A stretch of 57,750 nucleotides of DNA, from assembly GCA_012840065.1 (NCBI GenBank), contig DUMD01000024.1, positions 1 through 57,750 of the forward strand. The letters are read 5' to 3'. Source of the stretch: Clostridia bacterium (lineage in GTDB: Bacteria; Bacillota; DUMD01). Positions 616 to 51,064 of the stretch are shown piece after piece. Below the pieces are notes generated by a model. It did not search any database and was not told where the DNA came from. It worked only from the letters and a program-made list of their open reading frames with translations. A program made the position numbers and the translations under genes. Numbering within the stretch: the stretch's first letter is position 1; the number at the start of each line of letters is the position of its first letter.

Positions 616-2160
616 CTATTCCTCTGCCAACCAAGTCCTTATAACTTGAGCTGCGTTTTCCGGTTTCTGCTTGATTAGTTTTTCTATTTCTTCCCTTAAC
701 TGTTTCTTTTCCATCTCTTCTGCACTTAGTACTGGTTCAGATTCTATTGCACTTACTGCAACCTCTTCCCCAATGACATAATCAAGGGTGCTTTCTTTCT
801 TTTTCCTTCTATTTATTATTAACCAGGTTAACAGTCCAGCCCCACCTATGCCAGCAATGAGCAATTTTAACAATAATGGGAAACTACTTTCAGGCTGTTG
901 TAAATCTTCTCTTAGCATATCTGCTAGGGTTTGATCAAAATCCAATCCCGTTACAGATATGAAGTCCCCTCTATTCTCATCAAGTCCAATAGAAGCCGCT
1001 ACCGTATTTTCCAAAGCAGCTTGTTTTTGGGGATCTAATTCTCCATTTACTACTACTGCTACACTAAGTCTTTTTACGCTCCCCTGAGAAACAACTAATT
1101 TCTCCTTAATTTCATTTATTTCATAATTAACAACCCGTCTATGTGTTTCCTGATTCGTTTGACCAGTATTATCTGGACTTGTATATGTGGGTATATTAGA
1201 TTCCGTGCCTGGCACACCACCAGCTGGCGACTCAGTACCAGTAAAAGACTCCCTTAATTCTTCTATGTTTCTAATTATTCCTGACTCGTCAACAACAGGT
1301 TCAAACAATCTCTTTTCCGTTTCCAGTTGATTAAAATCTAAAACCGCATTTACTCTAACCTGCACATTACCCGGCCCCAATACCTGCTCCAAGAGGGTTT
1401 GTACACTGTGTTCCAAATCTTTTTGAAATCCTTTTTGAATTTCTAATTGTGCCATAGTAATATTATTGTTATTAGTACCCTGGGTATCACCCGAAGCTGA
1501 AATTATATTTCCATTTGTATCTAATACAGTCACATTTTCAACAGTAAGATTTTCTACACTATTAGCAACCAAATGAACAACGCCGTCCACCGCATTGGAA
1601 TCAAGCTTAAAACCAGGCTCAAGCTCTACTACCACTGCTGCTTTTGCAGGAGTCTCTTCAGAAACAAAAACTGATGATTTTGCTTCTGTTATATGAACCC
1701 GAGCATTTTTTACCCCTTTTAAATGGCTTATCGTCCTAGATAATTCCCCTTCTAATGCCTTATGATAAAGCATTTTAAGCTGAGTATCTGTAGTGCCAAA
1801 TGGTAGATCCTGCAAAGATTCAAAACCAATCACCCCTTCACTTGGCAATCCATCCGCTGCCAAGCTATTTCTAAGTTCATATACTTTTTCAAGGGGCTGG
1901 GCAACAGCAATGGTACTTCCATTGTCACTGAGTTTATAAGGAATTTTACTTTCTTTAAGTTTTTGGGTTATAGCTGATGCATCTTGAGGTTCAAGATTGC
2001 TAAATAAAATATTATATTCTTCTTTCCCCATCATAGAACTAAAAATAGTTATGATTATAAGCACAATAAGAGCTGAAGAAGCCAAAATAATTTTTTGTTT
2101 TTTAGAAAACTTATCTAATATTTCTTTAGATTGTTGCTTTAACTTCTGCACAAATTCCAT
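616..2160 (-). CDS. fliF: Flagellar MS-ring protein FliF
   Basis: 514 aa with an N-terminal TM segment, a YscJ/FliF-like periplasmic region and a C-terminal TM followed by a charged tail. Lies in flgB-flgC-fliE-fliF-fliG order. Confidence 0.93.
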   Translation of the reverse strand: MEFVQKLKQQSKEILDKFSKKQKIILASSALIVLIIITIFSSMMGKEEYNILFSNLEPQDASAITQKLKESKIPYKLSDNGSTIAVAQPLEKVYELRNSLAADGLPSEGVIGFESLQDLPFGTTDTQLKMLYHKALEGELSRTISHLKGVKNARVHITEAKSSVFVSEETPAKAAVVVELEPGFKLDSNAVDGVVHLVANSVENLTVENVTVLDTNGNIISASGDTQGTNNNNITMAQLEIQKGFQKDLEHSVQTLLEQVLGPGNVQVRVNAVLDFNQLETEKRLFEPVVDESGIIRNIEELRESFTGTESPAGGVPGTESNIPTYTSPDNTGQTNQETHRRVVNYEINEIKEKLVVSQGSVKRLSVAVVVNGELDPQKQAALENTVAASIGLDENRGDFISVTGLDFDQTLADMLREDLQQPESSFPLLLKLLIAGIGGAGLLTWLIINRRKKKESTLDYVIGEEVAVSAIESEPVLSAEEMEKKQLREEIEKLIKQKPENAAQVIRTWLAEE

Positions 2161-2190
2161 CTTGCACTCACCTCAGCATATTTCTTGGTT

Positions 2191-2487
2191 TTATAATTGC
2201 ATCCGCATAATTTCGTGGTAAGCATCTACCAATTTATTCCGAATTTCTACAGTAAGCTGGAGTGCAAGACTAGCTTTTTCAGTTGCAATAGTTACCTGAT
2301 GAACATCTTCCACTTGACCAAGAGCTAACATTGAAGACAAACGTTCAGACTCTTTCTGGAGAGCATTTACATCATTTATGACTTGTGTGAAAATATTTTT
2401 AAAAGAAAAATTTTGCTCATTTTTTTTATTTTCCATTCCCTCAAAACTTGCTAGTCTTGGAATCTCAACTCTGCTTAAAATTTTCAT
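2191..2487 (-). CDS. fliE: Flagellar hook-basal body complex protein FliE
   Basis: 98 aa with the C-terminal motif ...VHQVTIATEKASLALQLTVEIRNKLVDAYHEIMRMQL typical of FliE; position between flgC and fliF. Confidence 0.9.
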   Translation of the reverse strand: MKILSRVEIPRLASFEGMENKKNEQNFSFKNIFTQVINDVNALQKESERLSSMLALGQVEDVHQVTIATEKASLALQLTVEIRNKLVDAYHEIMRMQL

Positions 2488-2508
2488 ACAACTATCCTCC
2501 TAGTTAAT

Positions 2509-2952
2509 CTATCTACTGATTTCTAAAGCTTTAAGAAACATAGCTTTTGCTGAATTAACAGCCGTAACATTAGCTTGATAAGCTCTTGTAGCTCCAATCA
2601 TATCTACCATTTCTTTAACCAAATCAACATTAGGATAGGCCACATAACCCTGTTCATTTGCATCTGGATGGTTAGGATCATAAATAAGTTTAGGTGGGCT
2701 TTGATCTTCTCTTATAGCTGCAACCCTAACTCCCCCAAATTTTGAACTAGTTTCCAAACTATTGTTAAGGTAAGATCTAAAACTTTTATCCTGTTCTATA
2801 GGAACAAAAACAGCCACCTGTCTTTTATAAGGGCCTCCTTGCTCGGTTCTTGTCGTTTGTGCATTGGCTATGTTATTTGAAATTATGTCCATTCTTAATC
2901 TTTGAGCGGTCAAACCGGAGGCACTAATTGCGAATGATGTAAATAAATTCAT
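2509..2952 (-). CDS. flgC: Flagellar basal-body rod protein FlgC
   Basis: N-terminal SASGLTAQRLRMDIISNNIANAQTT rod-protein motif and C-terminal YQANV...; 147 aa. Confidence 0.93.
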   Translation of the reverse strand: MNLFTSFAISASGLTAQRLRMDIISNNIANAQTTRTEQGGPYKRQVAVFVPIEQDKSFRSYLNNSLETSSKFGGVRVAAIREDQSPPKLIYDPNHPDANEQGYVAYPNVDLVKEMVDMIGATRAYQANVTAVNSAKAMFLKALEISR

Positions 2953-2954
2953 TT

Positions 2955-3350
2955 TTATCTCCCTCCACCATTAATTACTGTTTTCAATAACGCAAAATGC
3001 GCACCTACTTGTTGAGACAAGGCTTGATAATATAAAGTGTTTTGAGCAAGTTTTACCATTTCTTCATCCACATCAACGTTATTGCCGTCATTCCTCATAC
3101 TAGTTGTTTTTATTTCTCTGATAACATCTTCTTGTTTATTTTTAGCTAGTGGGTCTGTTGTTCCAATTCCATTAGAGTAATTAGCAAGGGCATCCTCTAA
3201 CAAGCCAGAAAAAGAAACTTCTTTCTTTTTATAACCGGGAGTTTCAGAATTAGCTATATTTTCGGAAATAATCCTATGACGCAAAGCGGAAAGATCTAAT
3301 CCTTTTTCCATTAATCTTATAGCTGGAATATTAAAGATATTTCTTATCAT
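2955..3350 (-). CDS. flgB: Flagellar basal-body rod protein FlgB
   Basis: LSALRHRIISENIANSETPGYKKKEVSF rod motif; first gene of the flagellar operon; RBS GAAAGGAAAGG upstream. Confidence 0.92.
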   Translation of the reverse strand: MIRNIFNIPAIRLMEKGLDLSALRHRIISENIANSETPGYKKKEVSFSGLLEDALANYSNGIGTTDPLAKNKQEDVIREIKTTSMRNDGNNVDVDEEMVKLAQNTLYYQALSQQVGAHFALLKTVINGGGR

Positions 3351-3445
3351 CTTACCTTACCTTTCCTTTCTTCTATAATTTTAAATATTTTTCAGCAAAA
3401 AACATTATTTTGAAGTAAACCACCGCATAAATTATCAATACATTT

Positions 3446-3592
3446 GCATAATAATACACAAATACCCTAGATAAAGCTAGGGTACGAACAAGTAGGACAA
3501 TCACAGCAACCGGCTGTCATAGACTTAAATAAGTCCTTAGACCCTTGGCTTTGCGTCCTGGGCTTTCGCCCAGTTTGCCTTTTTTGTACATC
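3446..3592 (-). promoter_or_regulatory. c-di-GMP-I (GEMM-I) riboswitch aptamer plus terminator-like expression platform in the flgB leader
   Basis: Minus strand reads GGCAAAC-UGGGC-GAAA-GCCCA-GGACGCAAAGCC-AAGGGUCUAAGGACUU-AUUU-AAGUCUAUGAC-AGCC. This shows the hallmark GGCAAAC, a GNRA-capped first hairpin, the ACGCAAAGCC junction and a second hairpin with CUAAG/UAUG tetraloop-receptor-like bulges. A hairpin ACCCUAG-CUUUAU-CUAGGGU (3464-3483) and a U-rich tract follow. Confidence 0.8.
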
Positions 3593-3597
3593 GTCTT

Positions 3598-3627
3598 AAC
3601 TTATTTTTTTGTAGATTCTTTCTTCAA
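3598..3627 (-). promoter_or_regulatory. Candidate sigma-A-type promoter driving the riboswitch/flgB transcript
   Basis: Minus strand TTGAAG (3627-3622), 18 nt, TAAGTT (3603-3598), just upstream of the aptamer. Match to consensus is only moderate. Confidence 0.3.
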
Positions 3628-3775
3628 CTTTTTAAATTTTTTAAGGTTTTATTTTTCTCCTATAACTTCGCTATGCTTCGCCAAATTCCTTCAAAAAATT
3701 TAACTAATTTTGGTTATTTAACATAAATTTGTTTATTAACATCCTATTTTTTGACAAATATTTTTTATGACATCA

Positions 3776-3806
3776 AATAAAAAAGTGGACTTTCTTGTCC
3801 ACTTTT
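3776..3806 (-). terminator. Intrinsic terminator after codY
   Basis: Perfect hairpin AGTGGAC-tttctt-GTCCACT (3784-3803) directly after the codY stop, followed on the minus strand by a U run. Confidence 0.8.
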
Positions 3807-4601
3807 TTATGAGTTTTTAATTTTGTTGTTTTTTTTCAATTCTTCTAAAAGACGTTCATTAAGTACTTTAATATAAGTACCCTTCATCCCCAAAGACTGG
3901 GATTCTATCACCCCAGCACTTTCAAATTTGCGGAGAGCATTAACAATAACCGAACGGGTAATCCCAACTCTATCGGCAATTTTGCTAGCAACAAGAAGGC
4001 CTTCATTTCCATCTAATTCTTCAAAAATATGAGTTACCGCCTCTAATTCGGAATAAGAAAGTGTACCAAGAGCTATCTGAACCGCTGCTTTTCTCCTCGC
4101 TTCTTCTTCAATCTTCTCCGCTTTAACTCTTAGAATTTCCATTCCAACAACCGTTGCTCCATATTCTGCTAAAATTAAATCTTCATCTGTAAATTCATCT
4201 TGAAACTTTGCTAAAATCAAAGTACCAAGCCGCTCGCCACCTCCCTTAATAGGGACAATGGTCATTAACTTGCCGTTAAATATACAATCCGTCTGCTCTT
4301 TAAATACGCAAAGCTGTTTATTTTGAGGAATGTTTGCCGATGTTTCTTCAAATTCTAAAATCCACTTATTATATTCTGGTGGAAACTTTTCCTTACGCAA
4401 AACCTCATCCTTCATAATTTCGCATTCAAAACCGTCTAAAAGTGCATAGCCCAAAATTTCTCCTGAATTATTAACAATATAGATGTTAGTTCCTATTAAC
4501 TCACTCAATACGGTAGACATTAATCCAAAATCAACTAAACTGCCGGCTGTTTTTAATAGCAGCTTATTAATTCTTCTTGTTCTTTCTAATAATGTCCTCA
4601 T
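3807..4601 (-). CDS. codY: GTP/BCAA-sensing pleiotropic repressor CodY
   Basis: GAF-like N-terminus and C-terminal w[47 protein letters not shown]; follows hslVU as in Bacillus. Confidence 0.95.
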
Positions 4602-4619: not shown

Positions 4620-6008
4620 TTACAAAATATACCTACTCAAATCCGCATTCTTTACTAATTCTCCTAATCTAGCTATTACATAATCCTTGTCAATCTCTAC
4701 ACTTTCAATAGATTGGTCAGGTATTATAAATAAAAGATCTTCTAGTAATTTTTCCATAACAGTATGCAACCGTCTAGCCCCAATGTTTTCTGTCTGTTCA
4801 TTTACTTCTTCAGCAATTCTTGCTATTTCTTCAATGGCCTCTTCCGTAAAAGAAAGTTTGACTCCTTCTGTAGCAAATAAAGCAATATATTGTTTAATTA
4901 AAGCATTTCTCGGTTCAACCAGTATTCTCTTAAAATCCTCCTTAGTTAAACTTTTTAGCTCAACCCTAATAGGAAATCTGCCTTGTAATTCAGGAATCAA
5001 ATCTGAAGGTTTTGAAATGTGAAAAGCACCAGCAGCAATAAAGAGAATATGATCGGTTTTAACAACTCCATACTTGGTTACAACCGAACTCCCTTCAACA
5101 ATAGGAAGTATGTCCCGTTGCACACCTTCCCTTGATACATCCGGACCACCGTAGCCGCTTTTACCTGCCACCTTATCAATCTCATCAATAAAAATAATTC
5201 CTGTTTCCTCAGCCATATTTATTGCTTCAGCAATAACAGCATCCATATCTATTAATTTTTGAGCTTCATCCTGAGTCAAAATTTTTCTGGCTTCAGCAAC
5301 GGTAACTTTTTTTCTTTTCTTTTTCTTAGGAACTAAGCCATTAAACATATCTTGAAAATTAGCTCCTAATTCATCTAAACCGGTGCTAGCAAACAATTCA
5401 ATCATAGGCGCAGATTGATCTTCCACTTCTATTTCAATTAATTTATCCTCATATTCCAAAGCACGCAATTTTCTAAGAATCTCTTCCCTTTCTTTAATCT
5501 GGTCCTCTGCTTTTTCTTCTTCCAAGTTATCCGAATTAACCTGACCAAATAAAAATCCTAAAGGATTGTTAACAGTATTGATGCTCCTTTTTCTCCCTGG
5601 CAAAAGATAATTTACAATCCTTTCTTCAGCTAATTTTTTGGCTTTTTCTTCAACCACAGCTAACTTTTTTTCTTTAACCATCCTAATTGCTGTTTCCACC
5701 AATTCCCTAACCATCGATTCTACATCTCTTCCAACATAACCAACCTCTGTAAATTTTGTAGCCTCTACTTTTATGAAAGGTGCACCTACCAATTTCGCTA
5801 AACGGCGGGCTATTTCTGTTTTTCCAACTCCAGTAGGACCGATCATAAGAATGTTTTTAGGAATAACCTCATCTCTAAGCTCAGGGGCAAGTTGTTTTCG
5901 CCTATACCTATTTCTAAGAGCAACAGCAACTGAGCGTTTTGCTTCTTTTTGACCAATTATATATTTATCCAACTCCTGAACGATTTGACTAGGTGTCAGA
6001 TTTTCCAA
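4620..6008 (-). CDS. hslU: ATP-dependent protease ATPase subunit HslU (ClpY)
   Basis: [34 protein letters not shown] and Walker [16 protein letters not shown]; 462 aa. Confidence 0.96.
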
Positions 6009-6026: not shown

Positions 6027-6569
6027 TTAATCAAGCTCTTCTAATGTTATGTTATGGTTAGTATAAACGCATATATCTGCAGCAATATGCAAAGACTTTT
6101 CAGCTATTTCTGCGGCAGATAGGTTAGTATTATCCAGTAAAGCTTTAGCCGCTGCCAAAGCATAGTTACCCCCAGAACCAATAGCAATAACCTGACCATC
6201 CGGCTCAATAACCTCGCCACTACCGGAAATAACCAAAATATTATTTAAATCTGCAACTAGTAATAAAGCCTCCAATCTTCTTAAAACTTTATCCAGACGC
6301 CATTCTTTCGCTAATTCAACAGCAGCCCTGGACAGATTTCCTCTATATTCTTCAAGTTTTCCTTCAAATTTTTCGAACAGGGTAAAAGCATCCGCTACTG
6401 AACCGGCAAACCCTGCCAAAACTTTGTTGTTGTACAAACGTCTAACTTTCTTAGCATTACTTTTCATTATTGTGTTTCCCGCAAAGGTTACCTGGCCATC
6501 ACCAGCCATTGCAACCTTTCCATTTTTTTTTACTGCAATAATGGTAGTTGCTTCAAACAAAGTCATCAC
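6027..6569 (-). CDS. hslV: ATP-dependent protease subunit HslV (ClpQ)
   Basis: N-terminal [21 protein letters not shown] (Thr nucleophile after Met processing); 180 aa; upstream of hslU. Confidence 0.95.
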
Positions 6570-6587: not shown

Positions 6588-7517
6588 CTAAGCTCTAGGA
6601 TGGGTTTGATCATAAACAAATTTCATTTTTTCCTTAGTTACGTGAGTATAAATCTGAGTAGTAGATATATTAACGTGTCCAAGCAACTCCTGAACTGTTC
6701 TTAAATCTGCTCCGGCATTCAGTAAATGAGTAGCAAATGAATGACGAATTGAATGCGGTGTAATCTTTCTCTCCAAAGATACCTGCTTAATATATTTATC
6801 CACAATCCTTCTTATACTCCGAATCGAAAGTCTAGTCCCATTTTTATTAAGAAAAATTGCTTTAGTATTATCTTTTATTAACTGGGGTCTTGCATAATTT
6901 AAATATTTTTCTAAAGCATTAAGCGCCTGCCTTCCAATAGGAACAATTCTTTCCCTCGATCCCTTGCCTAAAACTTTCACATATCCAACCGTAAAATCTA
7001 GATCTCCCAGATCCAAACCTGCCAATTCGCCTATTCTCAATCCTGCAGCATAAAATAATTCCAATATTGCCCGATCCCGGCAACCTAAAATAGTAGTTTG
7101 ATCGGGAGCTTCAACCAACATCTTAGCTTCTTCAAGGTACAAAAATTCAGGTAATTTTTTTTGTTGCTTAGGAGTTGCTATATGGGCCGCAGGATTATCC
7201 TGCAGATATCCTTCCCGGCACATATAACGAAAAAAAGAACGAACCGCCGCAAGCTTCCGGGCAATTGAAGAACGACTATAGCCTTCCGATTGCAGAAAGG
7301 CTAAAAACCCCCTTACATCTAAGTGCTTAACGACGGACAATCCTGATAAATCGGTAATCTCTTTTTGTTTTTGTTTTTTTATAAAATCACTGAACTGTGC
7401 AAGATCTACTTTATAAGCTGTCAAAGTATGATCTGATACATTTTTTTCTAGTTTAAGATAAGCATAAAATTCGGTTAGTAAGTTATTCATCCATACCATC
7501 AACCCATATATCTTCAT
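6588..7517 (-). CDS. xerC: Tyrosine recombinase XerC/CodV
   Basis: Phage-integrase fold with ...HSIRHSFATHLL...LLGHVNISTTQIYTHV catalytic region. The true start may be the internal MNNLLTEFYAYL (7490); no clear RBS at any candidate. Confidence 0.88.
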   Translation of the reverse strand: MKIYGLMVWMNNLLTEFYAYLKLEKNVSDHTLTAYKVDLAQFSDFIKKQKQKEITDLSGLSVVKHLDVRGFLAFLQSEGYSRSSIARKLAAVRSFFRYMCREGYLQDNPAAHIATPKQQKKLPEFLYLEEAKMLVEAPDQTTILGCRDRAILELFYAAGLRIGELAGLDLGDLDFTVGYVKVLGKGSRERIVPIGRQALNALEKYLNYARPQLIKDNTKAIFLNKNGTRLSIRSIRRIVDKYIKQVSLERKITPHSIRHSFATHLLNAGADLRTVQELLGHVNISTTQIYTHVTKEKMKFVYDQTHPRA

Positions 7518-7548: not shown

Positions 7549-8883
7549 TTATGCAAGTAAAAAATCTAAATTTTCTTTAAATTCCACCAGGCTATTAATT
7601 GCCCTTTCCCCTAATTTAAGTCGTTTTTCTTTTTTGCTCCCCCTACCTTTTTTCAATTTTTCCTCTAACTCTGGTAAAAGACCAAAATTAATATTCATAG
7701 GTTGAAAGTTTTGGGGATCAGCTGATGTAATGTAATTAGACAAAGCCCCCAAACAAGTTGTTTTAGGGAAAATAAAAGGCTCTAAACCACGGATTAAACA
7801 AACTGCATTTATACCTGCCACCAAACCAGATGCAGTTGATTCAACATAACCCTCAACTCCAGTTATTTGTCCTGCAAAAAAGATATTCTTATTGCTCTTT
7901 AACTGATAAGTAGGTTCTAATAAAACAGGAGAATTAATATAGGTATTCCTATGCATCACGCCATGCCTAACAAATTCGGCCCGTTCTAAACCGGGAATCA
8001 TGCGAAAAATTTTATCCTGGTCCCCCCATTTTAACTGGGTTTGAAAACCAACTAAATTATAGAGGGTTCCTTCCCGGTTATCTTGGCGAAGCTGGACCAC
8101 AGCATAAGGTTGCTTATTTGTTTTTGGATCGATAAGCCCTACAGGCTTAAGAGGACCAAATAAAAGAGTATTCCTTCCTCTTTCAGCCATCTCTTCAATC
8201 GGCATACACCCTTCAAAAACAATTTTTTTTTCAAATTCCTTGGGCTGATATTTTTCAGCCTTGATCAAAGCCTCATAAAAATGATTAAATTCTTCCTCAG
8301 TCATAGGACAGTTAAGATAATCATCTGTTCCCTTCCCATATCTAGATGCTCTAAACACTTTATCCAGATTTATAGAATCATAAGTAACAATAGGAGCAGC
8401 AGCATCATAAAAATATAAATATTCCTCACCGGTAAAATTTTTAATGGATTGGGCCATACGGTCAGATGTTAGCGGTCCGGTTGCCAAAATAACCACACCA
8501 GAACTAGGAATTTCAGTCACTTCTTTATTAATTAGGGTAATATTAGGATGGTTACAAATTAAATCGGTAACCATCCGGGAAAATTCCTCCCGATCAACGG
8601 CAAGCGCACCCCCAGCGGGGATTCTGCATCTATCAGCACAATACATGATCAGAGAATTCATCAAACGCATTTCTTCCTTCAAAACACCAACTGCATTTTC
8701 CATGCTATCTGACCTTAGTGAATTACTACATACTAATTCTGCCAGTAAACCAGTATGATGGGCAGGAGTACTAACTTGGGGTCTCATTTCATATAATTCT
8801 ACTTTTATTCCTCGTTGAGCTGCTTGCCAGGCAGCTTCAGATCCAGCTAATCCTCCTCCAATAATCGTTAACTGTGCATCCAT
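7549..8883 (-). CDS. trmFO: Methylenetetrahydrofolate-tRNA-(U54) methyltransferase TrmFO (Gid)
   Basis: FAD motif [21 protein letters not shown] start it at the internal ATG (8883) because the longer ORF overlaps the topA 3' end; synteny topA-trmFO-xerC. Confidence 0.92.
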
Positions 8884-8942
8884 TTTCTGACCTCCATAAA
8901 ACCAATTAGCTATTTTTATAGTTCTAGAAAAATAACCTAACT

Positions 8943-11030
8943 TTAATCCACTGTCTTTTGCTCTCCACAATCAGGATTATTACAAATTATTTTAAAGTCT
9001 CCTCCCCGACTTCTTTTTTCAACCAAAAGATGTCCACAATTCGGGCATAATTGTTGCACAGGCTTATCCCAGCTCACGAAATCACAATCCGGATACCTCA
9101 TACAGCCATAAAATTTCTTTCCTTTCTTACTCTTCCTTTCCACAATTTCACTGCTACATTTAGGACACAATACCCCTATTCCCTGGATAATAGGTTTGGT
9201 ATATCTACATTCCGGAAATCCAGGACAAGCCAAAAATTTACCGTATCTACCATGTTTTACAACCAAATTTCGTCCGCATTTTTCACATAACTCATCTGTT
9301 ACTTCATCAGGAATCACAACCTCTTTAATTTTTTCTTCTGCCAATTTTAAGCTCTCAGCAAATGGTTTATAAAAATCTGCCAGAACTTTAACCCAATCAT
9401 CATTTCCCTCTTCTACCCTATCTAAATTTCCTTCCATTTCCGCAGTAAATTCTTCATCTATAATTTTAGGAAAGTATTTAGATAACATATCTACAACCAT
9501 AAAACCTAACTCAGTAGGCTTAAATCTTCTATCTTCTTTTACCACATATCCCCGCTGTTGAATAGTTTCAATAATTGGTACATAGGTACTAGGCCTACCT
9601 ATTCCTTTTTCTTCCAAAACCTTTATTAGCATTGCCTCACTATAACGGGGTGGTGGCTGGGTAAAATGCTGTTTTGGGTCTAATTCTTTTAATTCAAGTT
9701 CTTGGTTCTGTTCTAATTTAGGCAAACTTTTATTTTCATCCTCTTCCTTCTTCTCATCCAAAGTTTCTTCATAAACAACCGTAAAACCAGGGAATTTTAA
9801 ATTAGATCCAGAGGCTTTAAATAAATAATCCCCTGCTTTTACTTCCACAGTTAAAACATTTAAAACTGCTGAACTCATCTGACTGGCAATAAACCGCTCC
9901 CAGATCAATTTATAAAGCTTATATTGATCCTTTGTCAGATACTCTTTAATTAAATCCGGTTCTCTCTCCACTCCCGTAGGTCTAATTGCCTCATGGGCAT
10001 CCTGGGCACCTTTCTTTTCTTTGTATTTTCTGGGCTGTTTAGGGAGATATTCCTTCCCATATTTAGTTAGAATATAATTTTTAGCCTCTTCCTGAACACT
10101 CTCGGCTATTCTAGTAGAATCCGTTCTAATATAAGTTATAAGACCAATTGTTCCTTCCTTGCCCACCGATAGACCTTCATATAATTCCTGGGCTAGTTTC
10201 ATTGTTTTTTTAGGGGTAAAATTTAATTTACGAGATGCTTCCTGCTGCAAACTACTCGTAGTAAATGGAGGAGAAGGATTTCTCAATCTTTCTTTTTCCT
10301 CTATTGAATAAACAAAAAACTTTTTGCCTTTTAAATCTTCAATAACAGCTCGTATTTCCTGTTCACTTTTTAATTCTATTTTTTGAGAACCTTTTTTAAC
10401 CAGTTTAGCCCAAAATAAATCATTCTTTTTACTACCTTGTAAAAAAGCCCGAAGAGACCAATACTCCTCAATTTTAAAATTCTGAATCTCCTTCTCCCGA
10501 TCGCAAATTAATTTCACTGCTACCGATTGGACTCTTCCAGCACTCAACCCTTTTTTAATCTTCCGCCAGAGTAAGGGACTAAGTTTGTACCCCACTATTC
10601 TATCTAAAATTCTTCTGGCTTGCTGAGCATTAACTTTAGCAAGGTTAATTGGGCGGGGATTTTTTAAAGCCCTTTGAATCGCACCCTTTGTAATTTCATT
10701 AAACTCAATTCTGCAAGAACTACTAGGATCAATACCGAGACTTTTGGCTAAATGCCAAGATATTGCTTCCCCCTCCCGATCCGGGTCAGAAGCTAAAAAA
10801 ACTTTATCTGCTGCTTTGGCAGCATCTTTTAGCTCTTTTAAAATTTGTCCTTTTCCTCTAATAGTAATATATTTAGGTTCAAAGTTATGCTCCAGATCTA
10901 CCCCAAATTGACTTTTAGGCAAATCTCTTATATGTCCCATAGAGGCTTTTACCGTGTACTTTTTGCCGGCAAATTTACTAATGGTTCTAGCCTTAGCTGG
11001 TGATTCGACAATAATTAAAGATTTTCCCAC
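8943..11030 (-). CDS. topA: DNA topoisomerase I
   Basis: Toprim [11 protein letters not shown], catalytic region and C-terminal Cys4 zinc ribbons. GTG start at 11030 is preceded by GGAGGTG; the longer ORF extension lacks an RBS. Confidence 0.95.
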
Positions 11031-11092
11031 ATTAACACCTCCAGGTCTTCTGCCTTCAGCAAATCTTACTTTCAATTTTTAGTTTATTTAGC

Positions 11093-15497: not shown

Positions 15498-15572
15498 TGG
15501 TGCGCCTGGCAGGAATCGAACCTGCGCACCTGGCTCCGGAGGCCAGTGCTCTATCCACTGAGCTACAGGCGC
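15498..15572 (-). tRNA. tRNA-Arg (anticodon CCG)
   Basis: Reverse complement GCGCCTGTAGCTCAGTGGATAGAGCACTGGCCTCCGGAGCCAGGTGCGCAGGTTCGATTCCTGCCAGGCGCACCA folds as a cloverleaf: 7-bp acceptor, D arm GCTC/GAGC, anticodon loop CUCCGGA, T arm GCAGG/CCTGC with TTCGATT, encoded CCA. Confidence 0.95.
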
Positions 15573-16783: not shown

Positions 16784-17779
16784 TTATTCTCCAGCTGCCT
16801 TCCGTACCATTGCTTGATGATTAGGATCAACTTTATTTGAACTATGAGTTTTACTACCTAAAAAGTGAAGATCAAAATGTCCATCCATTCCATTACCTTT
16901 TACTTTGTCTAAATTAGTTCCTGTTCCATAACCCCCACTTCTACCACTTACATTTACTCCGTAAGGTTTATCATCCCTCCCAGCATGAGGCATTCCAGCC
17001 ATAGATGCTGCAATTCTCCTGCCATTAACTGTAACAACTACTGCCCGCCTATTCCAACTCCAATTTCCTCCGTATATCCTCTTCATAATTTGTGTATCTT
17101 GCAAAGAAAGAGGTTCACAGTCTGCATGATTATAACCACCTGTTCTCCTAATTTGAAAACTCAGTCCAGTTTCTAAATCTGTTATAGTAGCTATACCATC
17201 CCGAGGAAAAATATTCTCGACTTGTCCAAACCAAGGAAGTAATTCCCCATAGCCTGGCTTTACTCTTTCTCCTCTGGAAACCTGACTGTCAGAAGGAACG
17301 ACAAGCTTCTGCCCAACTTGAAGCATAGTAGATTGTAAACCATTCAATTGGGATAAAGTGTCTACATCAGTATTAAATTTTTGAGCAATTAGCCAAAGAG
17401 TATCACCTTTTTCAACTATGTAATATGTAGTTTCCGATCTGTTTCCTCCCCTAGATGCTAAGTTGCTTTCTCCCGCGTTTTCTAATTTTTTCCAGGTTTG
17501 GGAACCAACAATTCCATCCACTTTCAACCCGTTGGCCCTTTGAAACTCCTTTACTGCCTCCAGAGTAATTGTTCCAAAATAAGCAGTTGGTTCAACGCGG
17601 AAATAATTTAATTCCCGCAGTCTTTCCTGTAAAATTTGGACATTTGTCCCTCTCATCCCAAACTTTAATAACTGCTGAGGAGCACTAAAGTTTGCTGCCA
17701 CAGCTTGTCCACCATGAAGACATGTAAAAAAAATAGACATATTTAAGCCTGCTACAATTAAAGATTTCTTAAAATTCAT
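16784..17779 (-). CDS. Secreted peptidoglycan-binding protein (PG_binding_1 + LysM + uncharacterised C-terminal domain), putative cell-wall hydrolase
   Basis: Signal peptide; PG_binding_1 repeat (GTNVQILQERLRELNY...FQRANGLKVDGIVGSQTWKKL); LysM (YYIVEKGDTLWLIAQKFNTDVDTLSQLNGL...GQKLVVP). The C-terminal ~170 aa contain His/Asp-rich GHFDLHF. Confidence 0.8.
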   Translation of the reverse strand: MNFKKSLIVAGLNMSIFFTCLHGGQAVAANFSAPQQLLKFGMRGTNVQILQERLRELNYFRVEPTAYFGTITLEAVKEFQRANGLKVDGIVGSQTWKKLENAGESNLASRGGNRSETTYYIVEKGDTLWLIAQKFNTDVDTLSQLNGLQSTMLQVGQKLVVPSDSQVSRGERVKPGYGELLPWFGQVENIFPRDGIATITDLETGLSFQIRRTGGYNHADCEPLSLQDTQIMKRIYGGNWSWNRRAVVVTVNGRRIAASMAGMPHAGRDDKPYGVNVSGRSGGYGTGTNLDKVKGNGMDGHFDLHFLGSKTHSSNKVDPNHQAMVRKAAGE

Positions 17780-17799
17780 AAAAACACTCCTCTCTTTAA

Positions 17800-17924
17800 G
17801 CCTACGAGGTTAGTTGACGGGTTCGGGAAAAGAGTAACCCGGCCGTAAAATACGGCTTCACCCCTGATCATAAGATCCTTATCCCCCGCTCCTTTAATAA
17901 GGATTCGGCATAAAACCCATGTGC
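17800..17924 (-). promoter_or_regulatory. ydaO/yuaA-type c-di-AMP riboswitch
   Basis: Minus strand reads ...GCCGAAUCC...AGGAGCGGGGGAUAAGGAUC...AGGGGUGAAGCCGUAUUUUACGGCCGGGUUACUCUUUUCCCGAACCCGUCAACUAACCUCGUAGGC. It carries the family signatures GAGCGGGGGA, GGGGUGAA and CCCGAACCCGUCAxCUAACCUCGUAxGC, and ends ~20 nt before the ATG. Confidence 0.85.
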
Positions 17925-45865: not shown

Positions 45866-46267
45866 TTACAAATAATATCCGCAGGAAGTACTATCAAAAG
45901 CTCCTTTTATTAATTCTATCAATTCATTACCCGGCAACTGCTGAGGTGAGGAAACTATACTAATTACATCAAAGCGGCAATTGACATCCTTTAAACCTTT
46001 TTCCTTGATATAATTAAGAGAAGTCTGGATTATTTTTCTTTTTTTCAAGCCAGTAATAGCTTCTGAAGGGTAACTAAAAGCTAAACTACTCCTTGTTTTT
46101 ACCTCAATAAACACCAAACATTTTTTATCATAAGCGATCAAATCAATTTCCCCATATTTGCAGCGATAATTCCTATCCACAATTTTATATCCCTTTTGCT
46201 TTAAAAAACCTTCAGCTAAAGATTCTCCATATCTACCAAAAAAATTTTTAGACAAATTATCACCCAC
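45866..46267 (-). CDS. yraN: YraN family (UPF0102) endonuclease-like protein
   Basis: GESLAEGFLKQKGYKIVDRNYRCKYGEIDLIAYDKKCLVFIEVKTR canonical motif; GTG start abuts the stop of the HD-GYP gene. Confidence 0.88.
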   Translation of the reverse strand: MGDNLSKNFFGRYGESLAEGFLKQKGYKIVDRNYRCKYGEIDLIAYDKKCLVFIEVKTRSSLAFSYPSEAITGLKKRKIIQTSLNYIKEKGLKDVNCRFDVISIVSSPQQLPGNELIELIKGAFDSTSCGYYL

Positions 46268-47317
46268 CTATATTTCAATCACCTCAGTAATAAGCACATT
46301 TAAGTGCTTAGTCAAATCAATTTCTTCTTCACTATCAATGATTCTCACAATCGGTCTGGAATTAGCGCCTCTATTTTGATCAACAACTATTCCTACTTGT
46401 CCCGTAGTAAGTCGCACAATTGATCCATTAGGATAGAGAGCAATGTTTCTCAGAAAAGTAGTTACTATCTTTTCCTCCAAATGGGTTCCACTACTGGCCA
46501 TAATAATTTCAGCCGCTTCGTGCGGTAAAATTCCCTTTCGATATGGTCTATCCGTTACTAAGGCATCATAAACGTCGGTTAAAGCAACAATTTTAGCAAA
46601 TTCATGAATATCTTTACCACTAAGACTTCGAGGATATCCTGTTCCATCTACGTGCTCATGATGCTGGTAAGCAACATGAGCAACTAAACTGCTAATTTCA
46701 TCATGCTGTCGAATAATATTAAATCCTTCTTCAGGGTGGGTCTTTATCAGCTCAAATTCTTCTTTAGTTAAAGTACCAGGTTTATTAATCAATTCTTTAG
46801 GAATTTTACACTTTCCCACATCGTGAAGTATGGCACCTAAAGCTAAATCCCTTAACCTTAGTTGATTATATCCTAAGGCAATACCAATAACTGTAGACAT
46901 CACGCAAACATTTACACTATGTCCGTAAGTATACTCATCTACCGCTCTAATATCGGATAATCCTATAAGCACACCCTTATTATACAGAATCTCATCAACA
47001 ATATCATTAACTATTTTTTTTATTTGTTTAAGGTCTTTGCTAGTTAATTTACCATTTAACTGAACGTTCTTTAAACTTTCTCTCATTATTCTTACTGACT
47101 CAATGCGGGTTGTTTCTTGAACTAAATCCGGAACCACAATTCCTTCCGATATACTATCTTCAATATATACATACGGTATTCCAAAATCCTTCAGTCTTTT
47201 AATATACCTCTCTTTAAGCTGGATTCCCGCACTTAAAAGCACTGTTCCATCTGCCCCGTATATGGTTTTAGCCAGTTTTTCGCCTGGTTTAACCAAAGCC
47301 ATTGCAACCTTTCTCAT
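46268..47317 (-). CDS. HD-GYP domain protein (putative c-di-GMP phosphodiesterase)
   Basis: HSVNV...LHDVGK...HPEEG...HHEHVDGTGYP...DVYDALVTDRPYR; N-terminal ~120-aa uncharacterised domain. Confidence 0.88.
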   Translation of the reverse strand: MRKVAMALVKPGEKLAKTIYGADGTVLLSAGIQLKERYIKRLKDFGIPYVYIEDSISEGIVVPDLVQETTRIESVRIMRESLKNVQLNGKLTSKDLKQIKKIVNDIVDEILYNKGVLIGLSDIRAVDEYTYGHSVNVCVMSTVIGIALGYNQLRLRDLALGAILHDVGKCKIPKELINKPGTLTKEEFELIKTHPEEGFNIIRQHDEISSLVAHVAYQHHEHVDGTGYPRSLSGKDIHEFAKIVALTDVYDALVTDRPYRKGILPHEAAEIIMASSGTHLEEKIVTTFLRNIALYPNGSIVRLTTGQVGIVVDQNRGANSRPIVRIIDSEEEIDLTKHLNVLITEVIEI

Positions 47318-47340
47318 TTCCTACCCTCCGCAAACAAAAA

Positions 47341-47631
47341 CTAGTCTGTTTTATCTTTTAGCCCGTCCTCTAGGGTAAAAATAAAACTAAATATTTCAGC
47401 AATAACCCGGTAAAACTCAGGTGGCACTTCCTCACCTAATTGAAGTTTTAATAATTTATCAACTAATTCTTTATCTTTATGTACTGTAATTCCATATTCT
47501 TCAGCAATACTAATAATTTTTTCTGCTATGATCCCTTTACCTAAAGCAACAACCCTTGGTGCATTATCAGTCTCAGAATCATAGGACAATGCCACTGCTT
47601 TACGATAAAATGATTGATTATCATTAGTCAT
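47341..47631 (-). CDS. FlhB C-terminal-domain-like protein (EscU/YscU/HrcU switch-domain family, YlqH-like)
   Basis: 96 aa. KAVALSYDSETDNAPRVVALGKGIIAEKIISIAEEYGITVHKDKELVDKLL...EVPPEFYRVIAEIFSFIF aligns by eye to the FlhB segment immediately after the NPTH autocleavage site. No TM region and no NPTH. Confidence 0.85.
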   Translation of the reverse strand: MTNDNQSFYRKAVALSYDSETDNAPRVVALGKGIIAEKIISIAEEYGITVHKDKELVDKLLKLQLGEEVPPEFYRVIAEIFSFIFTLEDGLKDKTD

Positions 47632-47667
47632 TTTCTCGACCTCTTTGACTCAATTTTGACTTAATAA

Positions 47668-49107
47668 TTAAACCGAAAGATCAATCCAATTATACTGTAT
47701 TTTATCCGGGTCATCTAGCCTTTTCTCAAGACCATCTGAAAATTTCATTTCTGTACAATAAATTTTATTGTTAAAATAACCAAGCTTATTAAAAACGCTG
47801 TTTAAACCAGGCAATGATTGTCTTAACAATTCCAGATATTCTTTATTTTTTAAACCAAAATGAATTATAAGCTCTTTTTGATCATTACAACTAATATTTA
47901 TTTGTATAAACCCCAATCTATCTAATTCTAGTTGCATAGTCACCCTAAAAACATTTTGCTGTCCACTGTTTTTAATCCTTTTTTTAAATTTCAACTCTAT
48001 TTTTGCTTCTCTTTCCTTAAATTCATAATAAAATGGGATAACAAACACAAGCTGATTCCAATCATCTTTGATTCCTGTTTTTAATGGAGGAAGATTAATC
48101 AATTTTTGGGCAAATAAATGTTCGATAATTTGTTTGATTATTTTTTCTGAAGCTTGTTCTTGCTCTGGATTGCTCATTTTCCAAACTGCCGAGGTTTCAT
48201 TTAAAACATCAATAAGAACAGATAACAACTGTTTTTCTACCTGTTTTTCTACCTGTTTTTCTACCTGCTTTTCTACCCTTCTTTCCCTCTCCATCAAATT
48301 TTGAATTTCACTAACAGTCTGATCTTCATTAGAAATAATCCCTAATATCTTTAGTTTAGTCTTAAAATTTTCTGCCTTTGGCTCGAAGGTATCGATCAAT
48401 TCTTTTAAAAGCCAGTTGAGTTCATCCATTGCAGAATTATTTTTTACTTTATCTATCTGTGATTCTAAAAATAAGACCTTCTTAAGCACAGCTAACGATG
48501 AAGCCAGATTGGTTTTATTATTTTTAACTTCGTTTATTAAGCTAAGCAACTTACTATTTAAAGGTATTCCTCTTTCTTGGCAGAAAGCCAAAGTTTGAAT
48601 TAATTCTTTCAAATAACTGTCGTCATGCCTACTGTTTTTAACAGCACAACGGGCAACTAGTGATATGTTGTCCCTCATTAAAGGCATTTTACTATTGTAC
48701 ATCAACTCCACTATTTTTTTAGTTAAATCATTGTCAGGCAAATCCAAAGTTTTAAGAACCTGGTTAAAATCACTTTGCCCCCTAGTGTTTTTCAGAAAAT
48801 CAAGCGCAGAATTATTAGCCTGCCCAAGTCCCAAGTCATCTAATATCCGCACCATAACCTGACCTTGCCGGTTAATACCAGTAACGATAGCAAAAAACTT
48901 CTTACCGGGAAAAAAGTCTTTTCCTTCAATAAATCCAGTTACTTGGGCAGAAAATACCAACCCTTTCAAACTTAAAAGAATTTTTTCACCTTCAACCTCT
49001 AAAATAGTTAAGGATACCGGCTGGTTTACATATTTAAAAAGAAGGTCATAATTATCTGTTGAATTGAAAATCTGGCCGGTAAAAACTAAATTCAGTGAAT
49101 TTATCAT
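47668..49107 (-). CDS. FliK-like (flagellar hook-length control, Flg_hook-type C-terminal domain) protein
   Basis: 479 aa. The C-terminal ...RVTMQLELDRLGFIQINISCNDQKELIIHFGLKNKEYLELLRQSLPGLNSVFNKLGY matches the L.L.P..LG.v.v.i...l.v.f......l...l..L...L...G pattern; internal (VEKQ)4 repeat. Confidence 0.6.
   Translation of the reverse strand: MINSLNLVFTGQIFNSTDNYDLLFKYVNQPVSLTILEVEGEKILLSLKGLVFSAQVTGFIEGKDFFPGKKFFAIVTGINRQGQVMVRILDDLGLGQANNSALDFLKNTRGQSDFNQVLKTLDLPDNDLTKKIVELMYNSKMPLMRDNISLVARCAVKNSRHDDSYLKELIQTLAFCQERGIPLNSKLLSLINEVKNNKTNLASSLAVLKKVLFLESQIDKVKNNSAMDELNWLLKELIDTFEPKAENFKTKLKILGIISNEDQTVSEIQNLMERERRVEKQVEKQVEKQVEKQLLSVLIDVLNETSAVWKMSNPEQEQASEKIIKQIIEHLFAQKLINLPPLKTGIKDDWNQLVFVIPFYYEFKEREAKIELKFKKRIKNSGQQNVFRVTMQLELDRLGFIQINISCNDQKELIIHFGLKNKEYLELLRQSLPGLNSVFNKLGYFNNKIYCTEMKFSDGLEKRLDDPDKIQYNWIDLSV
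48229..48276 (-). repeat. In-frame 12-nt tandem repeat x4 (CTGTTTTTCTAC; last unit has 1 mismatch) encoding (VEKQ)4
   Basis: Read directly: ctgtttttctac ctgtttttctac ctgtttttctac ctgcttttctac. Confidence 0.95.
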
Positions 49108-49255
49108 AAATTCACCACCTTTGGTAAACCTAATCTTTAATATCTAGGGCAAAATAAAAAATTTATCTGGCAGCAGGAAAATTTATTTAAAGATATGATT
49201 CACCCCCCTCTTAAAATGAAGGGGGATGAAATCATTAACAGCCGACGAATAAATT

Positions 49256-50077
49256 TTATGTATTGCTGACAGTTTTTGAGTTCAATATTTGTTGTACAGG
49301 CTCATAACTTTTGCGATGGATAGGACTCACTCCCAACCTTTTAAGAGCTAAGAGATGTTCTTTAGTACCATACCCTTTATGGCGGGCAAATCCATACCCC
49401 GGATAAAGGAGGTCCATTTTTTCCATAATTCTATCCCTTGTTACCTTTGCCAAAATTGAAGCAGCAGCAATACTTGCACTTTTTTGATCCCCTTTTATAA
49501 TCCCCTTTTGAGCGATACAAAGACCGGGAATTGTTAAACCATCAACCAATAAATATTCAGGATAAATTTTTAAGTTATTTATTGCTTTTTCCATAGCTAA
49601 ATAAGTAGCTTGAACAATATTAATCTGGTCAATAATTTCATGACTAACCTGGCCAATACCATAAGCAATGGCATTTTCAATGATTTCAATATAAAGCTTA
49701 TCTCTTTGGCGAGGAGTTAATTTTTTAGAATCATTCAAATTCTCGATTAGACAATCCTGAGGAAGAATCACTGCAGCAGCAATTAGAGGACCAGCTAGAG
49801 GTCCCCGGCCTGCTTCATCCACTCCTGCGATAATTTTATAACCGCGCTGTTTAACTTCAGCTTCATATCTATAAAGATGATGCAGACGTTCACTTTCCAG
49901 TAGTTTTTTTTTCAACTCTTTTTCCCACTGCTTAGCCAGATTTTTAACGCCGCACCTGGGATCGGATCTCAACCGACCAAGGATTGCAGTTGTAATTCTA
50001 AAAGAATTTTGGTTTAACCACTCCTTTATTTCCTTCACCGTCATCATATCAAAATTCTGCATACAATCTTCCCCCAT
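49256..50077 (-). CDS. rnhB: Ribonuclease HII
   Basis: IAGVDEAGRGPLAGPL active-site motif, ...DSKKL..., ...VDG...; follows rbgA as in Bacillus. Confidence 0.93.
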   Translation of the reverse strand: MGEDCMQNFDMMTVKEIKEWLNQNSFRITTAILGRLRSDPRCGVKNLAKQWEKELKKKLLESERLHHLYRYEAEVKQRGYKIIAGVDEAGRGPLAGPLIAAAVILPQDCLIENLNDSKKLTPRQRDKLYIEIIENAIAYGIGQVSHEIIDQINIVQATYLAMEKAINNLKIYPEYLLVDGLTIPGLCIAQKGIIKGDQKSASIAAASILAKVTRDRIMEKMDLLYPGYGFARHKGYGTKEHLLALKRLGVSPIHRKSYEPVQQILNSKTVSNT

Positions 50078-50165
50078 TTTATTAGCTGGTTTTGTATCTA
50101 TGTTATCATTTAAAGCTCTCGATGACTACTAAAAAATACAAAAGATTTTCTTTTAACAGACAAAA

Positions 50166-50198
50166 ACTAACCTCATCACCGTAAGCAATGAGGTTAGT
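50166..50198 (-). terminator. Intrinsic terminator after rbgA
   Basis: ACTAACCTCAT-caccgtaagca-ATGAGGTTAGT followed by TTTTTG on the minus strand. Confidence 0.65.
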
Positions 50199-50215
50199 AG
50201 GAAAATAATTATTTT

Positions 50216-51064
50216 TTATTTTTTAGGTTGTTCTAAGGTAATACGACCTAATTTGCCTTTCTGAAAATCAAGTAGAAAATTCCGTGCTGACTTGTCTAAG
50301 TCTACTTCTCCTCCCTGCATCAGAAAACCTCTAGATTTTCCAAAGCTAGTCAAAAGAGTTGTTATGTCTACCTGATCTTTACCTGTTAGATCATACTGTT
50401 TCAGAATTTCCTCTTTTTGCTGAGTAGGAAGATATAAAATAAGATGATTTATCATTTCAACCGGATCAAATAAATGAGAAGCAATAGCACCGGTCAAAGC
50501 TAATTTATATCCTACCTCCTCTTCTTCAAACTTAGGCCAAAGTATGCCAGGAACATCTAATAATTCCAAATCACCGGAAAATTTAATCCACTGCAATCCC
50601 TTAGTAATCCCGGGTCTATCACCTATCTTTGCACTTTTCTTTTTAGCAAAGCGATTTATTAATGAAGATTTACCTACATTAGGAATACCCAAAACCATAG
50701 CTCTAAAAGCCCTGGGTTTTCTCCCTCTTTTTTTCCAATATTCTAATTTATCTTTCATTAAATTTTTTATTTGTTTAGTAAGCATATTTAAGCCTATTCC
50801 ACGCTGGGAATCAACAGGAACAGCAATTAACGATTGTTTTTGAAAATATTCTATCCATTCTTCTGTAATCTCTGGAGAAGCTAAATCAGCTTTATTAAGC
50901 ACAATTATCCGTGGTTTTTTTTCTGTAATACTTGCAATATCAGGATTTTGACTGCTATAAGGAATTCTAGCATCCAATAGCTCAATCACCAAATCAACCA
51001 ATTTAAGATGTTCCTGAATATTCCTTTTTGCTTTAGCCATATGCCCCGGATACCATTGAATCAA
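50216..51064 (-). CDS. rbgA: Ribosome biogenesis GTPase A (RbgA/YlqF)
   Basis: MIQWYPGHMAKAKR start; circularly permuted GTPase motifs NKADL ... GIPNVGKSSLIN ... DVPG. Confidence 0.95.
   Translation of the reverse strand: MIQWYPGHMAKAKRNIQEHLKLVDLVIELLDARIPYSSQNPDIASITEKKPRIIVLNKADLASPEITEEWIEYFQKQSLIAVPVDSQRGIGLNMLTKQIKNLMKDKLEYWKKRGRKPRAFRAMVLGIPNVGKSSLINRFAKKKSAKIGDRPGITKGLQWIKFSGDLELLDVPGILWPKFEEEEVGYKLALTGAIASHLFDPVEMINHLILYLPTQQKEEILKQYDLTGKDQVDITTLLTSFGKSRGFLMQGGEVDLDKSARNFLLDFQKGKLGRITLEQPKK

Follow-up and report, generated by a model that had tools for sequence, protein, structure and literature searches.

Introduction

The class-I cyclic di-GMP (c-di-GMP) riboswitches, or GEMM-I RNAs, have a known association with flagellar genes, and in 2007 the GEMM motif was listed more than once upstream of flgB, flgC, fliE, fliF and fliG (PMC1950547, Table 2). 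Cd1, which is located upstream of flgB in Clostridioides difficile, has been studied in its native context more thoroughly than any other c-di-GMP riboswitch and has been shown experimentally to be an OFF terminator switch (PMC6366702). The aptamer and terminator folds of Cd1 coexist, and its antiterminator is transiently stable and finally refolds into the terminator (PMC9262584). According to two reports, C. difficile also has an invertible flagellar switch that lies upstream of the flgB operon (PMC7446863, PMC5386303). Bc1, from the Bacillus cereus/thuringiensis group, is described as having a long platform with two terminators (PMC11218506).

In the present study, we describe a class-I c-di-GMP aptamer in the leader of the flgB-flgC-fliE-fliF-fliG flagellar operon of a Clostridia bacterium (GenBank assembly GCA_012840065.1, contig DUMD01000024.1). 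The window, by which we mean the whole stretch of DNA that was analysed, comprises 57,750 nucleotides, and the aptamer lies on its minus strand between codY and flgB, followed by a terminator-like hairpin. The association of this riboswitch with flgB has been known since 2007, and the new aspect is the lineage in which it is found here, where it probably acts as an OFF switch.

Results

The whole window was scanned with cmscan against Rfam 15, and three matches exceeded the gathering score. Among these was RF01051 (c-di-GMP-I) at 3589..3502 on the minus strand, with 82.5 bits against a gathering score of 35 and E = 9e-15; a permissive scan of the codY-flgB gap alone gave E = 8.5e-17. The preliminary description of this DNA had proposed a GEMM-I aptamer at this place and had named the Rfam search as its check, so the wide margin of the score bears the proposal out; the minus strand of 3627..3446 also matches exactly the sequence that was quoted there. 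The alignment is full-length, spanning model positions 1-87 of 87, with only one non-canonical pair, which arises because one nucleotide is deleted from the 3' strand of the P2 helix. All strongly conserved consensus positions were matched except one C near the 3' end, and RF01051 was the top family within clan CL00126 by clan competition. In addition, R1, a covariance model made from confirmed aptamers, gave the window aptamer 87.7 bits.

In the GEMM-I family, the first hairpin has a 2-bp and a 6-bp stem with a conserved 3-nt internal loop and a GNRA tetraloop, AAA joins the second hairpin, and members with a GAAA tetraloop carry a tetraloop-receptor-like motif in the second hairpin (Weinberg 2007, PMC1950547). 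The window aptamer has GGCAAAC, the hairpin CUGGGC-GAAA-GCCCAG, the ACGCAAAGCC junction and a P2 hairpin with the receptor-like motif CUAAG/UAUG, all aligned with the consensus, as had been noted from the letters of the DNA. Its first hairpin and junction read GC-AAA-CUGGGC-GAAA-GCCCAG-GAC-GC-AAA-GCC, in which all pairs are canonical, and UCUAAG...UAUGA aligns with the consensus CUAAg...AuGa, for which docking is predicted. The position that affects cyclic-dinucleotide selectivity (G20 of Vc2, G11 of Cd1; PMC9262584) corresponds to G3579. The equivalent of Vc2 A47 is A3552, the first A of CAAAG; it was located through the position that defines the variant family RF03167, whose consensus has GCGAA in place of GCAAA. 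Since these two equivalents are G and A, the class-I aptamer of the window appears to be of the ordinary c-di-GMP type. The C in UUGCU stands at the expected 3' position and is probably the equivalent of Vc2 C92. Thus, every feature of RF01051 membership that can be checked by sequence is present.

The aptamer lies on the coding strand of flgB and ends 152 nt upstream of the flgB ATG. The operon start was identified by NCBIfam equivalog hits and by the gene list of the parent contig (Table 1), and fliG is the next gene after fliF on this 248-kb metagenome contig (JGI 3300012949). The strand, the NCBIfam genes and the parent contig therefore agree with the earlier placement of the aptamer in the leader of the flgB-fliG operon. 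The gap had also been described as 456 nt without an open reading frame (ORF). The size is correct, but one ORF of at least 50 aa is listed in it, a 52-aa TTG ORF at 3545-3703 (+), opposite and overlapping the aptamer, which is very probably spurious and not a gene. No credible second RNA element was found by the permissive Rfam scan of the gap. codY has its own strong terminator hairpin, which probably limits read-through from codY; therefore, a promoter within the gap is probably needed.

A terminator-like scan of 3300-3900 gave 3 sites against 0.2 expected from shuffles, and the hairpin at 3485..3462 was the sole minus-strand site. The ACCCUAG/CUAGGGU hairpin at 3483..3464 that had been noticed before is present and extends to 9 bp, with -11.6 kcal/mol; it begins 17 nt after the aptamer, and its tail UUGUGUAUUAUUAUG ends about 96 nt before the flgB ATG, in agreement with the preliminary description. 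The hairpin and tail are plausibly an intrinsic terminator, though not a textbook one because the U-tract is interrupted. The aptamer is further enclosed by a 17-bp closing helix (extended P1), whose duplex of -13.3 kcal/mol was equalled by 0.6-1.6% of shuffles. This helix stops 1 nt short of the hairpin, so the two do not compete.

Table 1. Coordinates of the riboswitch region, its neighbouring genes and the HD-GYP region in the window
Feature	Position	Strand	Basis
Promoter-like block: AGGAATT (3690-3684), 17 nt, GAAG (3668-3665); imperfect SigH-type motif	3650..3695	-	conserved with locus L165
Closing helix (extended P1), 5' strand: AAUAAGU (3605-3599), GACGAU (3595-3590), UACA (3588-3585)	3585..3605	-	minimum-energy folds
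c-di-GMP-I (GEMM-I) aptamer	3502..3589	-	RF01051, 82.5 bits; R1, 87.7 bits
Closing helix, 3' strand: UGUG (3505-3502), AUUGUC (3501-3496), ACUUGUU (3493-3487)	3487..3505	-	folds
Terminator-like hairpin: GUACCCUAG (3485-3477), loop CUUUAU (3476-3471), CUAGGGUAU (3470-3462)	3462..3485	-	terminator scan
U-rich interrupted tail UUGUGUAUUAUUAUGC; UUAUUAUG part kept in L165	3446..3461	-	sequence, L165 comparison
flgB ribosome-binding region AGGAAAGGUAAGG before ATG at 3350	3355..3368	-	sequence
codY-flgB gap, 456 nt	3351-3806	-	between NCBIfam-identified genes
codY terminator hairpin AAAAAAGUGGAC-AAGAAA-GUCCACUUUUUU with U-run, strong	3777..3810	-	sequence and terminator scan
Operon start flgB-flgC-fliE-fliF	616..3350	-	NCBIfam equivalog hits and parent-contig gene list
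fliF	616-2160	-	NCBIfam equivalog
fliE	2191-2487	-	NCBIfam equivalog
flgC	2509-2952	-	NCBIfam equivalog
flgB	2955-3350	-	NCBIfam equivalog
codY, upstream neighbour	3807-4601	-	NF003170, 392 bits
hslU	4620-6008	-	NCBIfam
hslV	6027-6569	-	NCBIfam
xerC	6588-7517	-	NCBIfam
trmFO	7549-8970	-	NCBIfam
topA	8943-11075	-	NCBIfam
UPF0102/YraN-like protein	45866-46267	-	gene order
HD-GYP-type phosphodiesterase gene	46268-47317	-	PF13487 HD_5, 2.3e-32; HDVGK and HHEHVDGTGYP motifs
FlhB-C-terminal-like protein, 96 aa	47341-47631	-	HD-GYP neighbour
FliK-like protein	47668-49107	-	HD-GYP neighbour
RNase HII (rnhB)	49256-50077	-	gene order
GTPase	50216-51064	-	gene order

For comparison, 80 codY loci, one genome per species, were fetched and scanned with Rfam and with R1. 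codY was followed by flgB in at least 44 of them, which indicates that this setting is the norm in the nearest relatives; the hslVU-codY-flgB gene order, which had been called Bacillus-like, is real but not special. The closest genome representatives were Tepidanaerobacteraceae, Thermosediminibacter and Fervidicola, with a CodY identity of only 67-69%, and a scan of the JGI contig collection with FlgB gave no match above 45% identity. On these grounds the source organism, with a G+C content of about 35%, belongs to an uncultured, deep-branching lineage of the Bacillota.

An aptamer was found in the codY-flgB gap, on the coding strand, in eight of the 80 loci. Three of these (L006, L007 and L009) are Thermosediminibacter-like, L007 being Thermosediminibacter litoriperuensis and the other two Thermosediminibacter/Tepidanaerobacter-like. 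The remaining five (L021, L025, L028, L031 and L048) are Bacillaceae, namely Bacillus sp. P14.5, B. salacetis, two Rossellomorea vietnamensis and one metagenome-assembled genome (MAG). Among 80 distant metagenomic flgB loci, only one (L111) had an aptamer. With these counts, the codY-aptamer-flgB arrangement is recurrent but sporadic.

Closer FlgB relatives were obtained from a large protein collection (L163, L164, L165 and L166). In L163 (FlgB 99%) the intergenic region is identical to that of the window and hence uninformative for covariation, and the contigs of L164 and L166 are too short upstream for a comparison of the platform. L165 (FlgB 59%) has an aptamer upstream of flgB (66.5 bits with R1) with the same 1-nt deletion, although its contig ends before codY. 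The block upstream of its aptamer is conserved, and the segment downstream has diverged. At the position equivalent to the window hairpin, L165 has a hairpin of different sequence, GACCUC-A-GC[AUCU]GC-A-GGGGUU, then UAUUUUAUUAUGG. The retention of a hairpin and U-rich tail at the same place, though with another sequence, supports the view that this lineage has a functional terminator-like element.

The design of L006, L007 and L009 is more explicit. In these loci, UAUCCCU and AGGGAUA close P1, and the 3' strand runs on into AGGGAUAGAA, which can alternatively pair with UUCUAUCCC as an antiterminator; in the terminator, UCUAUCCC pairs with GGGAUAGA and is followed by U5-U9. We used enforcement of P1 as a proxy for the ligand-bound state and took the median base-pair probability of the terminator. 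This value rose from 0.04 to 1.0 in L007, from 0.0 to 0.97 in L009, from 0.0 to 1.0 in L006 and from 0.52 to 0.995 in L165. Because P1 enforcement raises the terminator probability, these four relatives are modelled as classic OFF designs. In the window, the probability was 0.999 both with P1 unconstrained and with P1 enforced, and it was the same with either assumed transcription start. Thus, the folding models make the window the outlier among its aptamer-bearing relatives, with a hairpin that is constitutive at equilibrium.

In the Bacillaceae, the aptamer (at about 3960-4059 in L021, L025, L028 and L048, and at 5021-5100 in L031) is accompanied by a GCGAUC...GAUCGC terminator. It stands directly after codY and 428-455 nt upstream of flgB, which leaves space for bypassing downstream promoters; in L031, about 1.25 kb is inserted between codY and the aptamer. 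Rfam places L025 (3965-4059) and L048 (3972-4059) in RF03167, c-di-GMP-I-GGC, with 62-64 bits against 59 (L048, 63.8). An altered binding pocket in these two was ruled out, since the defining A-to-G change (GACGCGAA) is missing and both are standard (GACGCAAA in L048, GACGCAAAGCC in L025). The assignment seems to reflect a short P2 hairpin and not an altered pocket. In another codY locus, that of a Candidatus Petromonas tenebris MAG (L015), group II intron domains (RF02001, RF00029) lie between codY and flgB at 3889-4438.

As regards the promoter, a sigma-70 scan of 3300-3900 gave no minus-strand site. A hand-picked sigma-70 candidate, TTGAAG-N18-TAAGTT (3627-3598), was rejected as weak and in clash with the significant closing helix. 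The consensus of SigH-type promoters is AGGA, 17-18 nt and GAAT (PMC12456013), and a promoter-like block of this type stands upstream of the window aptamer (Table 1). The block is kept in L165 (70-115) while its flanks diverge; the motif is degenerate in both (GAAG or GAAA). Perfect matches to RNAGGAWWW-N11-RNNGAATWW are found 82-103 nt upstream of flgB in L006 (4035-4063), L007 (4031-4059) and L009 (4037-4065). This strict pattern occurs four times in 1.5 Mb of fetched sequence, three of these being the matches just named. A looser SigH-type motif lies 72-90 nt upstream of flgB in L004, L005 and L008, which have no riboswitch. We consider the block of the window the likely origin of the riboswitch-flgB transcript; if so, transcripts would begin near 3657 and contain the closing helix.

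Reading towards flgB, the promoter-like block precedes the riboswitch in the window and L165, and the riboswitch precedes the SigH-type motif in L006, L007 and L009; in L007 an extended -10 element, TGTTATAAT, precedes the aptamer. This difference in order suggests a rearrangement or an independent placement, in which different shares of the flgB transcripts would be under control. By comparison with the fla/che operon of B. subtilis, which has sigma-A and sigma-D promoters, it would be unusual for an early flagellar operon to have a promoter of the SigH type. Heptamers resembling Spo0A boxes were also seen, TGGCGAA-gca-TAGCGAA in the window (3664-3683, -) and GTCGAAAA by the flgB ribosome-binding site (RBS) of L006, L007 and L009, but in the window as a whole TGNCGAA occurs 15 times against an expectation of 14.6, which is no enrichment. 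The Spo0A-box-like reading draws only on conservation between loci, and the SigH-type spacing fits better; both are candidate readings.

In the remainder of the window, the HD-GYP gene that had been reported at 46.3 kb is genuine (Table 1). Its neighbours, which had been taken for flagellar-switch paralogues, are FlhB-C-terminal-like and FliK-like and not paralogues of FliG, FliM or FliN. HD-GYP enzymes degrade c-di-GMP and are not a second effector of motility, and the suggested control of motility by c-di-GMP at two levels is not evidenced. The gene, which is outside the riboswitch unit, indicates by its sequence that c-di-GMP is turned over in this organism. We take the neighbourhood at 45866-51064 to be that known in Bacillus as ylqF-rnhB-ylqG-ylqH, into which the HD-GYP gene is inserted as a curious adjacency. 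A second riboswitch, for cyclic di-AMP (c-di-AMP), matched RF00379 at 17785-17920 (-) with 86.6 bits against a gathering score of 38. It lies directly upstream of an ORF at 16784-17779 (-) whose product has PG_binding_1 and LysM domains and is probably a cell-wall hydrolase, and this pair presumably represents the typical ydaO-type association. The window therefore holds riboswitches for two different cyclic dinucleotides. In addition, a single tRNA-Arg (CCG) gene was found at 15498-15572 (-).

Discussion

In the present study, the identity, position and strand of the aptamer and the presence of the hairpin were established from the sequence, together with an aptamer-hairpin-flgB layout that is conserved in relatives. 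We consider that a class-I c-di-GMP riboswitch acting as an OFF switch in the flgB-flgC-fliE-fliF-fliG leader explains these observations best, and we put the probability of this reading at roughly 0.55. What we infer is that the ligand binds, where transcription starts, that transcription terminates at the hairpin and that this termination depends on the ligand, the last of these from the homologous relatives and from Cd1 as a kinetic precedent. At high c-di-GMP, the ligand would lock the aptamer and the closing helix, and GUACCCUAG would be freed to pair with CUAGGGUAU as the hairpin at 3485..3462, so that RNA polymerase would terminate in the U-rich tract about 100 nt upstream of flgB. When c-di-GMP is low, the nascent leader would mostly take up aptamer-incompatible folds that engage the 5' arm of the hairpin, and more polymerases would read through into flgB.

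Several results weigh against this OFF switch. The base-pair probability of the window hairpin was 0.87-1.0 whether the aptamer was free, enforced or disabled, Boltzmann sampling of full-length folds gave 0 of 3000 structures lacking the hairpin, and, of the folds lacking it, the best reaches -41.9 kcal/mol against -52.9, a penalty of about 11 kcal/mol. A search of the window for an equilibrium antiterminator, by constrained and prefix folding and by Boltzmann sampling with several assumed starts, gave none. Two candidate antiterminators were considered. The first, a pairing of the aptamer core AAAGC-CA-AGGGUC (3552..3540) with G-U-ACCCU-A-GCUUU (3485..3473) of -11.4 kcal/mol, was equalled by 15% of shuffles and is thus not above chance. 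The nascent RNA has this pairing in its minimum-energy fold only if transcription starts downstream of about 3596, and a start farther upstream is argued for by the significance of the 17-bp closing helix and by the conservation of the promoter-like block at about 3690-3664. The second, a register-shifted closing helix (AAGUUA/UAGCUU, ACGA/UCGU, ACAA/UUGU, AGG/CCU), was equalled by 27-36% of shuffles and is likewise not above chance. Furthermore, the U-tract is broken (UUGUGUAUUAUU), whereas L006, L007 and L009 have runs of U5-U9. Of the OFF switch that had been proposed earlier, the terminator-like hairpin thus stands, and the dependence on ligand is without an above-chance antiterminator.

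Since the hairpin always forms at equilibrium, ligand-dependence in the window could only be kinetic. In the nascent RNA, modelled as it would be before synthesis of the hairpin's 3' arm, the aptamer-competent helix was present in just 12% of the sampled structures, and at least 4 of the 9 nt of the 5' arm were paired elsewhere in 86%. With nascent folds that are mostly incompatible with the aptamer and have the 5' arm engaged, a shift by the ligand toward the aptamer fold could plausibly speed the formation of the terminator. This resembles the kinetic scheme established for Cd1, and for this reason we keep the OFF switch as the best explanation.

A somewhat unlikely explanation is that the aptamer senses c-di-GMP while the hairpin, instead of being a ligand-gated terminator, serves as a constitutive attenuator, as a pause site or to stabilise the 3' end. 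It is in line with a hairpin that is predicted in all modelled states, with a weak U-tract and with an above-chance 17-bp closing helix that pre-organises the aptamer. The ligand would then, with the same somewhat low likelihood, affect the stability or processing of the RNA, the access of Rho or translation, as has been reported for the class-I riboswitches of Vibrio cholerae, neither of which uses termination; it has been pointed out that regulatory attributes are not to be extrapolated between species (PMC6366702). However, every relative of the same layout has a clear terminator/antiterminator design, and the permissive Rfam scan showed no alternative platform element in the gap. Translational control was tested through RBS accessibility, and no evident sequestering element was found: the mean unpaired probability from the RBS to the AUG was 0.53 both in the free and in the aptamer-enforced leader, and 0.35-0.38 with the 5' part of the leader unavailable. 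Control at the level of translation by the window leader is therefore unlikely according to these models.

A hairpin that is constitutive at equilibrium would also suit a stand-alone short transcript or a decayed platform, with flgB transcribed mainly from a promoter downstream of 3462. We regard this as quite improbable, although L006, L007 and L009 have a strong SigH-type motif between the riboswitch terminator and flgB, and the 428-455 nt that separate the aptamer and terminator from flgB in the Bacillaceae make transcripts that bypass the riboswitch plausible in relatives. The aptamer of the window and of L165 is preceded by the conserved promoter-like block, no sigma-70-like site was seen on the minus strand of 3300-3900, only about 112 nt of AT-rich sequence separate the hairpin from flgB, and the aptamer sequence is wholly intact. 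It is very improbable that the element is an ON switch, or that it senses another cyclic dinucleotide such as 3',3'-cyclic GMP-AMP (3',3'-cGAMP), as in GEMM-Ib. Class-I ON switches do exist, for example Bc2 of B. thuringiensis (PMC6366702), and cGAMP sensors share the aptamer fold (PMC9262584). In the window, however, the aptamer with its closing helix and the hairpin are 1 nt apart and do not overlap, so the ligand cannot block the hairpin; the equivalent of Vc2 G20 is G, clan competition selects RF01051, and flagella that are on at high c-di-GMP would be contrary to the usual physiology.

The order of the elements brings in a further idea, which we hold to be rather unlikely: the riboswitch of the window and L163 would be a rearranged version that, if c-di-GMP still regulates flgB there, uses a purely kinetic route or one other than a classical antiterminator, for instance ligand-dependent stacking or folding speed, or RNA stability. 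With the same low confidence, its marks would be an aptamer downstream of the SigH-like block, the 17-bp clamp and the equilibrium-constitutive hairpin. If true, it would be a natural mechanistic variant beside relatives of textbook design. The window copy without the obvious antiterminator of its relatives is a possible natural test case for kinetic control of riboswitches. With our findings, the documented association of c-di-GMP riboswitches with the early flagellar operon also covers an uncultured lineage of the Bacillota that branches deeply. The sporadic presence of the riboswitch in the codY-flgB gap of Thermosediminibacter-like bacteria and Bacillaceae helps annotation, and it is useful for inferring a lowered flagellar synthesis at rising c-di-GMP in these organisms.

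Among the known systems, Bc1 and Bc2 of the Bacillus cereus/thuringiensis group are likewise class-I aptamers of the Bacillota with terminator-type platforms, but their target genes are different, and Bc2, which controls the collagen adhesin gene cap, is an ON switch. Vc2, from the tfoY leader of Vibrio cholerae, is the structural reference of class I and shares with the window the three-helix aptamer, the GAAA tetraloop and receptor and the equivalents of G20 and A47; its gene context is another one, and its mechanism is reported as not being termination (PMC6366702). The relatives L006, L007, L009 and L165, with FlgB identities of 37-41% (59% in L165) and CodY identities of 67-69% to the window, have explicit switching between P1, antiterminator and terminator at equilibrium, which the window lacks. 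They agree with it in the strand, in an aptamer 150-180 nt upstream of flgB followed by a hairpin and a U-tail, and in the codY-flgB gap.

For Cd1 (Cdi-1-3), experiments have shown termination as well as the truncated RNA and the motility phenotype, whereas the window element is known from its sequence. The antiterminator of Cd1 is defined and unfolds the binding pocket, whereas none of the window pairings is above chance. The window also differs in its codY-flgB setting and in a leader with a 17-bp closing helix, and no element comparable to the invertible switch of C. difficile was noticed in the 456-nt gap, where no dedicated search for inverted repeats was made. On the other hand, both riboswitches have the same aptamer class and the same first gene of an early flagellar operon, flgB, and in both a hairpin and a U-tract follow the aptamer, at some distance ahead of the start codon. 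Both also allow the aptamer and terminator folds to exist side by side, so that switching must be kinetic (PMC9262584). The comparison with Cd1 that was made in the preliminary description is apt, and the logic expected for the window is the same, in which high c-di-GMP would lead to less flagellum (PMC6366702).

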